From Patescibacteria group bacterium (GTDB lineage: Bacteria > Patescibacteriota > Minisyncoccia > Phycocordibacterales > SBAW01), in NCBI GenBank assembly GCA_019752125.1, contig JAIEMM010000007.1, forward strand, positions 1-61,654: a stretch of DNA of 61,654 bases, in the 5' to 3' direction. Below, one piece after another: positions 5,301 through 57,046 of this stretch (position 1 is the first letter of the stretch; each line of letters opens with the position of its first letter). The position numbers were made by a program, and so were the translations under genes. The notes under the pieces were generated by a model. The model was not told where the DNA came from. It searched no databases and worked only from the letters and a program-made list of their open reading frames with translations.

Positions 5301-5353
5301 CATAGACTAAACAGGGTTGTTATTGTATAACGAGGTGGAAAGGAGTACCTCGT

Positions 5354-30785: not shown

Positions 30786-30884
30786 TTGCTGTTTCTTTAC
30801 TGAGACTGTGTTAGGCTTTCGGCAGACGGGTATGAGGGAATCCTTCCCTTACCTTTGTCTGGCTTAACCGTGAAAGGAAAAGCC

Positions 30885-54828: not shown

Positions 54829-54856
54829 ACGTCGCACAATATACCTTTTGCGACGC
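54829..54856. other. Candidate chromosome dimer resolution (dif-like) site, 11-6-11
   Basis: ACGTCGCACAA-TATACC-TTTTGCGACGC; arms 9/11 inverted; in gene-free gap at the orientation switch; KOPS polarity. Confidence 0.65.
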
Positions 54857-55361: not shown

Positions 55362-55380
55362 GGGGATTGACGACTTCCCT
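55362..55380 (+). promoter_or_regulatory. 19-nt promoter repeat copy 1 (contains -35 TTGACG)
   Basis: GGGGATTGACGACTTCCCT identical to 55548-55566; -10 TAATTT 16 nt after -35. Confidence 0.75.
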
Positions 55381-55423
55381 GTTCGTGGTAATTTGATTCT
55401 AGTAATTAACTGAGGAGGGTTCT

Positions 55424-55504
55424 GTGGGTCCTGACCATCTTTTGATTTGTGGGGCGGTAGTCGTCGCAATCCTTATCATAATCGCTCGTGCCCGTGAGTC
55501 TTAG
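55424..55504 (+). CDS. 26-aa hydrophobic peptide; accessory cassette
   Basis: SD GAGGAGG; GTG start; MGPDHLLICGAVVVAILIIIARARES; terminator 55507-55534. Confidence 0.55.
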   Translation: MGPDHLLICGAVVVAILIIIARARES

Positions 55505-55547
55505 CCGGCCGCCTTCTCCAGGCGGTCTTTTTTTATGTGGCCATGCG

Positions 55548-55566
55548 GGGGATTGACGACTTCCCT
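55548..55566 (+). promoter_or_regulatory. 19-nt promoter repeat copy 2
   Basis: Identical to 55362-55380; -10 TATTGT 16 nt after -35. Confidence 0.75.
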
Positions 55567-55613
55567 TTCTGTAGTATTGTGTTTTGGCACCATGTAACTG
55601 GAGGGCAAGACAA

Positions 55614-56094: not shown

Positions 56095-56388
56095 CTACCA
56101 AAAAAGATTTCCGGAGGAATAGAATAAAGATATGATGACATACGGCGCGACTATCACCACACTCTGTAGAGCACTCAAGCTCTTTCTTTTCAAACAAAGC
56201 CAAACTAGGCCTGCAGAAATACCGCAGATCGCTATCAATACAAGATCTATTAAACCGATGACCATATACGAAGTGCTCATGGCACTGTACGCAAGGGCAA
56301 GAACAGCACCTGGTGCAAGTATGTACACTATATAAACCACAACAATACTGTGGACGGCGGCAAGAAAGGTTAAAATCCATTTAGACAT
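56095..56388 (-). CDS. Small 3-TM membrane protein (97 aa)
   Basis: MSKWILTFLAAV...; TATAAT 6 nt before ATG. Confidence 0.65.
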   Translation of the reverse strand: MSKWILTFLAAVHSIVVVYIVYILAPGAVLALAYSAMSTSYMVIGLIDLVLIAICGISAGLVWLCLKRKSLSALQSVVIVAPYVIISLFYSSGNLFW

Positions 56389-56460
56389 AGGATGATTATA
56401 AGGCACTAGTGTAAAAATCTCAGCTATTGACGAGATTAGAATATATGTTAGTGTGCGGCG

Positions 56461-56582
56461 AGTCCTGAGGTGAATCTGCTGCCCCAAACAGCCGAGACTA
56501 ATCTGACCTGTTCCTTTCCATTTCCACGTTCCTGGAGCAAGTTGGTGTCCCTTAGTCTTCACCTCAGGACAACTTCTTTTTT
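56461..56582 (+). ncRNA. Candidate structured small RNA of about 120 nt
   Basis: TTGACG-16-TAGTGT promoter (56427-56454); 13-bp closing stem 56462-56474/56558-56570; inner stem AGACTAA/TTAGTCT; 3' U-tract. Confidence 0.55.
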
Positions 56583-56640
56583 GTGATATCGTAGGCATGC
56601 ACCAAGAGTATCCTTAAGAGATACAAACGGAGGGCTGGAG

Positions 56641-56793
56641 ATGTCCAATTCATCAGAGGGTTCCAACAACCGCTATTTCCTGCACGGTTCCAGTTCGCAG
56701 GATTTGTGGCTGAAGAGGAGCGAGTCGTGGCTGTTCAGTCTGGCCGTGCTCGGTATCACCGCTCTGGTCTCGCTGATCATCCATCAGCTTTAG
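56641..56793 (+). CDS. 50-aa peptide with C-terminal TM; accessory cassette
   Basis: SD GGAGG; manual translation MSNSSEGSNNRYFLHGSSSQDLWLKRSESWLFSLAVLGITALVSLIIHQL; terminator 56792-56848. Confidence 0.6.
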   Translation: MSNSSEGSNNRYFLHGSSSQDLWLKRSESWLFSLAVLGITALVSLIIHQL

Positions 56794-56896
56794 ACCGCCC
56801 AGGTTTTCAATACAAAAGCCGCCCCTCATCAGGGCGGTCTTTCTTTTTATGTCTGTCCCAGGTAGTGTATTCAAAGTCTGTTCCCTGGGGGGTGTC

Positions 56897-57046
56897 ATGG
56901 TTCGATTTGCAGCACTCTGCCTATTTCTGCTGCTACTCAACTTCAACTTCTACTATGTTGTGAGCCAGGCCGGAGTGAGGAGAAACGCCACCGTCACCGG
57001 CAATTTTCCAGAGATTCTCGCGGCTATCATCGTGATCCTTTACTAG
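56897..57046 (+). CDS. 49-aa two-TM peptide; accessory cassette
   Basis: G-rich SD; MVRFAALCLFLLLLNF...EILAAIIVILY; terminator CTGCCA/TGGCAG at 57047-57068. Confidence 0.55.
   Translation: MVRFAALCLFLLLLNFNFYYVVSQAGVRRNATVTGNFPEILAAIIVILY

Follow-up and report, generated by a model that had tools for sequence, protein, structure and literature searches.

The divergent intergenic region between a 97-aa membrane-protein gene on the - strand and a 50-aa ORF on the + strand probably holds a discrete sRNA gene on the + strand, which stands alone and encodes a structured non-coding RNA of about 120 nt. The window analysed, a stretch of 61,654 nt, is all of contig C5; the genome (G000) measures 702 kb and is 98.9% complete. 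The candidate RNA has a stable structure; its promoter, its topology and the loop of one of its hairpins (P2) are conserved across copies, the + strand is preferred, and there is no coding constraint on the region. We infer that it is transcribed as a discrete RNA. A sequence-only reading had proposed such an RNA on this strand, starting at about 56461 and ending at a U-tract, and the proposal now finds support in a syntenic RNA of another genome of the same genus (G035), in a second copy in that genome and in a block shared with a metagenome contig (X7). Judging from the sequences compared, the family appears to be small and fast-diverging, represented once here, twice in G035 and at least once in the unrelated metagenome sample of X7. 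Bacterial sRNA genes are a known kind; the family itself is new and has no Rfam match. The coordinates of the RNA, its parts and its neighbours are collected in Table 1.

Table 1. Predicted RNA gene and adjoining features, in positions of the window.
Feature	Position	Strand	Remarks
Divergent 97-aa membrane-protein gene	56095..56388	-	Promoter 56423..56395 back to back with the RNA promoter; appears leaderless
A-rich stretch upstream of the -35	56413..56426	+	Left edge of the block common to the X7 contig; preceding flank unlike
-35 hexamer TTGACG	56427..56432	+	Identical in G035_A; TTGACA in G035_B
Extended -10 TGT-TAGTGT	56446..56454	+	TAATTT in X7 (56451 G>A, 56453 G>T); TGC-TATTTT in G035_A; TAACCT in G035_B
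Predicted sRNA, about 120 nt (start and end inferred)	56461..56582	+	Fold z -4.61; 56461-56492 identical in X7
P1, 5' strand of the 13-bp clamp	56462..56474	+	Begins one base past the predicted transcript start
P2, side hairpin with C-rich loop CCCCAAA (56482-56488)	56475..56495	+	Unchanged in X7
P3, long irregular arm with 19-nt pyrimidine-rich apical loop (56515-56533)	56496..56557	+	From the fold
P1, 3' strand of the clamp	56558..56570	+	From sequence and fold
AAC, then U-tract, presumed point of intrinsic termination	56571..56582	+	X7 keeps a T-run here (loose end)
Conserved leader of the small ORF	56583..56640	+	SD GGAGG; possible extended -10 TGA-TATCGT at 56584-56592
Gene of 50-aa tail-anchored small protein	56641..56793	+	YFLHGSS..W..SESW.F motif, then C-terminal membrane helix
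Terminator after the small ORF	56818..56838	+	Terminator scan

All stems and motifs named in the earlier reading are present. GTCCTGAGGTGAA (56462-56474) pairs perfectly with TTCACCTCAGGAC (56558-56570) as a 13-bp clamp, with AACTTCTTTTTT following 3' of the clamp; the AGACTAA/TTAGTCT stem, the GCTG/CAGC side hairpin with its loop CCCCAAA and the pyrimidine tract GTTCCTTTCCATTTCCAC (56510-56527) were likewise recovered. The minimum free energy of 56461-56585 on the + strand is -41.6 kcal/mol against -26.3 +/- 3.3 kcal/mol for 200 dinucleotide shuffles, none of which reaches the native value (0/200; z -4.61), and the fold is a closed three-way junction of the clamp P1, the hairpin P2 and the long arm P3. 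The opposite strand also folds (-43.0 kcal/mol, z -3.31). Unpaired positions are strongly pyrimidine-rich, 29/38 in the window RNA and 22/27 in the syntenic copy of G035 (G035_A). By itself the clamp is not unique and proves little, because the 702-kb genome contains 10 perfect inverted repeats of at least 13 bp with a spacing of 50-150 nt. Among the listed long-range repeats, it is the only one with an upstream TTGAC promoter, and the element is single-copy in G000.

The promoter was read by eye as TTGACG, 16 nt and TGT-TAGTGT, the last an extended -10; a consensus promoter scanner left it uncalled because this -10 matches the consensus at only 3/6 bases. As a sigma-70-type promoter it would start transcription at about 56461, and the A-rich stretch upstream of the -35 may act as an UP element. 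In the layout we propose, the first transcribed bases would pair with the last bases of the RNA to form the 13-bp P1, P1 would close a three-way junction of the short 5' hairpin P2 (CCCCAAA) and the long irregular P3, and the U-tract directly 3' of P1 would end the transcript.

Comparative evidence was obtained from G035, the only one of 79 other genomes of the genus in which the 97-aa membrane protein has a homologue (56% identity); the gene is arranged there as in the window. The G035 locus is syntenic: it contains a dif 28-mer, an Excalibur-domain protein, a 136/143-aa protein and the 97-aa homologue, the intergenic region, and also a small-ORF homologue, a transglycosylase-like protein and an exonuclease. 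When the two intergenic regions are compared, the divergent promoters align up to TTGACG and the flanks share about 83-87% identity, but there is hardly any alignment over the RNA body. Conserved flanks around a barely alignable body therefore point to selection on shape and not on sequence. G035_A has the promoter TTGACG-16-TATTTT with an upstream TG, called by the scanner at 9/12, and a 125-nt RNA with the P1/P2/P3 topology of the window RNA in a different sequence: a 12-bp P1 of its own, a P2 hairpin with the loop GCCC, and a long P3 arm, with UCCCC as apical loop. Its + strand folds at -61.5 kcal/mol (z -5.50) and its - strand at -52.8 kcal/mol (z -3.56), and a canonical + strand terminator hairpin, separate from P1, lies at 2008-2028 of the G035 locus (L026). 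When P1 of the window RNA and of G035_A were aligned with Infernal, 4/10 pairs had changed on both sides and none was broken.

The second G035 copy, G035_B (L026 457-566), lies 1.4 kb upstream of G035_A. It has its own promoter (TTGACA-17-TAACCT), a 10-bp P1 starting 6 nt after the -10, a P2 that reads CUUAUG-CCCCA-CAUAAG, a long arm and, like the window RNA, AAC after P1; a terminator hairpin is found at L026 ~573-600, and the next gene, for a ~95-aa membrane protein, has a promoter of its own (TTGACA-17-TAGTTT). The offset of P1 from the -10 is equal (6-7 nt) in all three genomic copies. Common to the copies are the promoter type, with TAnnnT kept in every -10, P1 at the predicted transcript start, the three-helix topology and termination soon after P1. 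The P2 loop reads UGCCCCA in the window, X7 and G035_B and GCCC in G035_A, on P2 stems that differ but still pair.

X7 is an 889-nt metagenome contig from another study, which matches the window only over 56413-56575 and is unlike it in both flanks. The shared block spans from upstream of the -35 to the T-run and carries 30 differences in 163 nt (~82% identity). Five changes cluster in 56451-56460, and the 32 nt that follow, up to 56492 (5' strand of P1 and P2), are unchanged. In P3, pairing survives three transitions (56505 G>A, 56506 A>G and 56536 A>G) as G-U or A-U, on the + strand only, and a 1x1 loop is displaced by one position through a paired shift at 56539/56540; the stability predicted for the arm is similar in X7 and in the window (-9.2 vs -9.9 kcal/mol). 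The 3' strand of P1 is out of sight in X7 because differences within ~31-36 nt of the block ends are unlisted. By a hand count, the 12 listed differences inside the RNA fall 4/4/4 on the codon positions of both overlapping ORF frames, and the region is therefore not coding. A 167-aa ORF on the minus strand over the RNA is not conserved in G035, and a coding ORF inside the RNA was dropped on these two grounds. The X7 flank before 56413 contains ACAGAGGACAGTCCTCTGT, whose core GAGGACAGTCCTC matches the 16-bp palindrome CCGAGGACAGTCCTCG; this palindrome occurs as a pair in G000 (contig C3 102-174).

Covariance models were built from single sequences, R1 from the window RNA, R2 from the G035 RNA and R3 from a further family copy. 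Each of them has its best cross-match exactly at another of the RNAs. R2 finds its best match in the window at 56462-56572 (12.4 bits, E 0.0079 in 401 nt), and R1 scores G035_B at 13.7 bits (E 0.007 in 6.4 kb) and G035_A at 8 bits. G035_B had first been scored by the G035 model, at 11.9 bits; the reverse strand of G035_A scores equal to a true member (11.9 bits). Since these cross-model scores are weak and a reverse strand scores as well, the homology of the family is argued mainly from position and architecture. The family comprises three full sequences and one partly visible, too few for formal covariation statistics; MAFFT gave no structural alignment of the three RNAs, and model-guided alignments drew in reverse strands.

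In genome searches, R1 had matches in 0/79 genomes of the genus and 0/150 of the order, a search so insensitive that it excludes close homologues only, and the equally insensitive R2 and R3 searches returned only G035 itself among 79 genomes. With the E limit raised to 10, the two G035 copies still escaped R1, and the window RNA escaped R3. A pattern combining the promoter with TGCCCM matched 34 times across 80 genus genomes vs 3 times for a reversed control; when a clamp filter was applied to 30 retrieved loci, P1 at the transcript start and a P2 loop occurred together in none but the three known copies. A blastn search with 181 nt against 60 relatives yielded only short chance matches (E 0.006 or worse), the best of which (G060) is coding DNA, and there was no match among phages and plasmids. 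Pattern scans found the 5' block nowhere in the genome, metagenome and viral contig collections, the apical block nowhere in metagenome and viral contigs, the junction block in no genome contig and the gapped clamp in no viral contig. Among the sequencing runs listed, 8 DNA runs from 3 studies contain the stretch of the RNA gene and no RNA run does.

Rfam 15, whose models cover RsaE, 6S, SRP RNA, Y RNA, ribozymes and riboswitches among others, gave 0 matches in the whole window at gathering scores; at E up to 10, six weak matches fall in 56300-56900, none of them overlapping 56461-56582, and the G035 RNA bodies have no Rfam match. SRP RNA was ruled out (no match to RF00169 or RF01854, no Ffh/FtsY domains, element not conserved in the genus), and so was 6S RNA (no match to RF00013). 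A sponge of the CsrB/RsmZ type, built on GGA motifs of the minus strand, was rejected with a best CsrA match of 14.3 bits vs a cut-off of 27, and a retron msr-msd with no RVT_1 match in the genome; none of Hfq, CsrA and reverse transcriptase scores over cut-off in the genome. GTTRRRY is the core site motif of integron attC sites. No such core was read in the sequence, and attC and MITE were both rejected for an element that is single-copy in G000 and whose shared block is asymmetric. This block extends 49 nt past the 5' repeat and only 5 nt past the 3' repeat in X7, and because of that asymmetry and of the lack of a second G000 copy the element is not a MITE.

As a separate observation, the entire order seems to lack the SRP pathway of protein targeting. 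As an SRP54-type GTPase domain is absent from G000, the genome has neither Ffh nor FtsY, and it has no Ffh M domain either. Across 100 genomes from 100 genera of the order, only P-loop fragments were matched (model positions 2-58 of 196, at most 25.5 bits), and the protein-domain controls were detected in 14/14 reference genomes. SRP RNA was not found in 41 genomes, nor by the large model in G000. Among the full-text matches listed, the passages available contain no statement that the SRP pathway is absent from the order.

The RNA region lies ~1.6 kb from a dif-like 28-base site (54829-54856). The dif 28-mer of G035 is identical (G035:C2:16097-16124, L076), and the dif-like site stands at the same upstream distance from the Excalibur-domain gene in both genomes. 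Because the site is identical and equally spaced, a variable island of small genes and RNA begins right at dif in both. We propose that the genomic copies belong to this dif-adjacent accessory island, where each would precede a small membrane-protein gene that has its own promoter. An integrated element between two dif sites was dropped, as no second site with at most 3 mismatches exists within the window. Six neighbouring proteins have no PHROGs, PADLOC or NCBIfam family and, against Pfam, only a weak sub-threshold Excalibur match. On the other side of the RNA promoter, the TATAAT of the 97-aa gene (56400-56395, - strand, within 56388-56423) is separated by 6 nt from the ATG at 56388, so that the gene looks leaderless; its G035 homologue has the identical TATAAT-to-ATG spacing (L026 ~1785-1803). 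A promoter module, GGGGATTGACGACTTCCCT, occurs twice in the window (55363-55381 and 55549-55567, 186 nt apart), before small island genes, with a mini-ORF of ~26 aa, its strong SD and a terminator (55415-55530) between the two copies. In G035, the membrane-protein gene that follows G035_B is preceded by a close variant, GGTTGACAGACTTCCCTTCC (L026 ~617-645).

Each genomic RNA copy lies just upstream of a small membrane-protein gene, for 50 aa in the window and for 55 and ~95 aa in G035. The 50-aa protein has homologues in G035 (48-50% identity; 55 aa, L026 2096-2263) and in P0001 (61%), and belongs to no Pfam, PHROGs, PADLOC or NCBIfam family. Only three sequences were seen among 1.8 billion representatives, with the hydrophilic motif well conserved before the helix. 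A profile of the small ORF gave no clear homologue in 78 other genus genomes (5 faint matches, E 0.014-0.049, were taken as chance) and, in 400 genomes of the order, only a spurious out-of-frame match inside dnaB. A word search for the ORF had no match, and a DNA search with its leader gave one chance match, in G083. This leader is 83% identical to that of G035 over 77 nt (E 2e-16). Its TGA-TATCGT might be an extended -10 promoter element, and the candidate, as TGnTATCGT, is conserved in the window and in G035_A, immediately 3' of the terminator.

This adjacency could be read differently, with the element as a cis-acting 5' leader or attenuator of the 50-aa ORF mRNA and with P1 and the U-tract as a possibly regulated terminator. 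RNA and small ORF are adjacent and co-oriented in G000 and G035, the scanner calls no consensus promoter between them, and the conservation of the small-ORF leader is unusual. However, G035_B is followed by a clear separate promoter for the next gene, the TGnTATCGT candidate stands after the terminator in the window and in G035_A, and G035_A presents two consecutive termination signals. The X7 sequence past the U-tract is unlike the window, the RNA body changes much too quickly to contain a ligand-binding core, and an alternative antiterminator pairing was looked for and not found. Since separate promoters follow the terminators and the body has no conserved core, we consider a leader or attenuator unlikely. 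It is far less probable still that there is no RNA gene at all, and that the region is an inverted repeat that is due to chance or belongs to the DNA level (as insulating terminator, mobile-element remnant or recombination hairpin) or the template of a minus-strand transcript. Perfect repeats of this length are not rare in the genome, the minus strand folds too and has four GGA motifs in its apical region, and the element is single-copy and narrowly distributed. Nevertheless, the same topology recurs at equal offset from a conserved promoter in three divergent sequences, the + strand of G035_A is 8.7 kcal/mol more stable than its - strand, the X7 transitions preserve pairs on the + strand only, and it is the + strand that carries the terminators. 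The GGA motifs have no CsrA to bind them, and a MITE does not agree with the asymmetry of the X7 block or with the lack of a second genome copy.

The stand-alone RNA could also form a type I toxin-antitoxin-like pair with its neighbour by blocking translation of the small membrane protein at the ribosome-binding site, close to what the sequence-only reading had suggested in calling it an antitoxin-like RNA for the 50-aa peptide. All three genomic copies are just upstream of small membrane-protein genes in an accessory island beside dif, and the best local duplexes between RNA and neighbour leader fall on the SD (GGAGGGC), at -16.7 kcal/mol in the window and -19.5 kcal/mol in G035. These energies are, however, reached by 18/40 shuffled RNAs for the window and by 14/40 for G035, and the two RNAs have no antisense word against the conserved leader in common at lengths of 5 nt and above. 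Moreover, the conserved hydrophilic N-terminal motif would be unusual for a simple pore-forming toxin, X7 has the RNA unit with a different downstream sequence, and there is no PADLOC or other family match. We regard such a pair as quite improbable.

As for targets of the discrete RNA, exact complements of the apical tract had been pointed out at SD sites of two leaders. The sites exist, TGGAAAGGA at 5336-5344 and GAAAGGAA at 30872-30879, and both are ordinary purine-rich ribosome-binding sites, but their numbers are near the chance level: counting the element itself, the 9-mer matches 3 times vs 0.65 expected (3/100 shuffles reach this), and the 8-mer 6 times vs 3.29 expected (14/100). The apical loop was then compared with 100 dinucleotide-shuffled loops over 864 crudely called translation-start regions. 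Its pairing minimum is -31.0 vs -29.8 +/- 2.1 (31/100 shuffles reach it), its mean -13.8 vs -13.6 (32/100), and its pairings at or below -12 number 547 vs 546 (48/100); only the top-10 mean, -28.3 vs -26.4, is marginal (3/100). The idea of a trans-acting anti-SD regulator working through the apical loop is thus not upheld, as pairing is no better than shuffled and the tract is not conserved in G035_A or G035_B. The sequence-only reading had itself named complementarity no better than shuffled as a result that would speak against it, and this is what was found; what it had named against the RNA itself was not. The P2 loop has complements of at least 6 nt in 35/864 of the crudely called start regions (4.05%) vs 3.63% of random windows, and two 9-mer matches among the 864; no target stands out. 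One P2-loop 9-mer complement lies across the ATG of a glycosyltransferase-like 321-aa ORF (C1 129772, - strand), which is also in the top five of the apical loop.

We hypothesize that the C-rich P2 loop would pair with G-rich ribosome-binding regions independently of Hfq, in the manner of RsaE/RoxS. A mechanism through a C-rich loop and without a chaperone is favoured because this loop, presented on a rigid scaffold, is the sole conserved sequence and because Hfq and CsrA are absent. The assignment as an Hfq-independent base-pairing regulator is offered tentatively, as one possible function. It is tempting to go further and to picture the dif island as carrying a new kind of two-gene cassette in which the fast-evolving three-way-junction RNA would silence the small membrane protein, an Hfq-independent, type-I-like addiction or defence module that could be swapped as a unit between genomes. 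Such a module would explain the diverged RNA body between conserved flanks, as well as the other flanks of X7, but we would bet against this picture, slightly more so than against a leader.

The reach of these results is limited because the family consists of three or four sequences without demonstrated function. On the other hand, a structured stand-alone RNA with comparative support is a concrete candidate for gene regulation in minimal cells in which neither Hfq nor CsrA was detected. Among the full-text matches listed, the available passages describe no regulatory RNA gene of the candidate phyla radiation. RNAs of the RsaE/RoxS type act through C-rich loops that pair with G-rich ribosome-binding sites. 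Like them, the window RNA is small and stably folded and would be Hfq-independent, with its own predicted promoter and terminator and with C runs in hairpin loops; the C-rich loops that characterise RsaE/RoxS are found as CCCCAAA in the window, CCCCA in G035_B, and GCCC plus the apical UCCCC in G035_A. These sRNAs of Firmicutes (PMC4409812, PMC6158497) are among the closest known systems. The window RNA itself matches neither RsaE nor another Rfam family in sequence or structure, and it differs in topology, as a closed three-way junction whose 5' end pairs with its 3' end, from a very narrow family with quick sequence turnover and no targets that stand out.

Riboswitch and attenuator leaders share with our locus the succession of promoter, P1-closed structured RNA, U-tract and downstream gene. 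They differ from it in that the window RNA has no conserved core or alternative fold, separate promoters lie downstream, and, within the reach of the searches, almost no relative has a member of its family. Type I toxin-antitoxin loci with a separate sRNA are exemplified by tisB/istR-1, zorO/orzO and shoB/ohsC. Compared with these, the arrangement in the window is tandem, not divergent or overlapping, and its complementarity is within chance; as in these loci, the sRNA gene adjoins a very small membrane-protein gene in accessory DNA. The link to small membrane proteins beside dif could provide a testable module.
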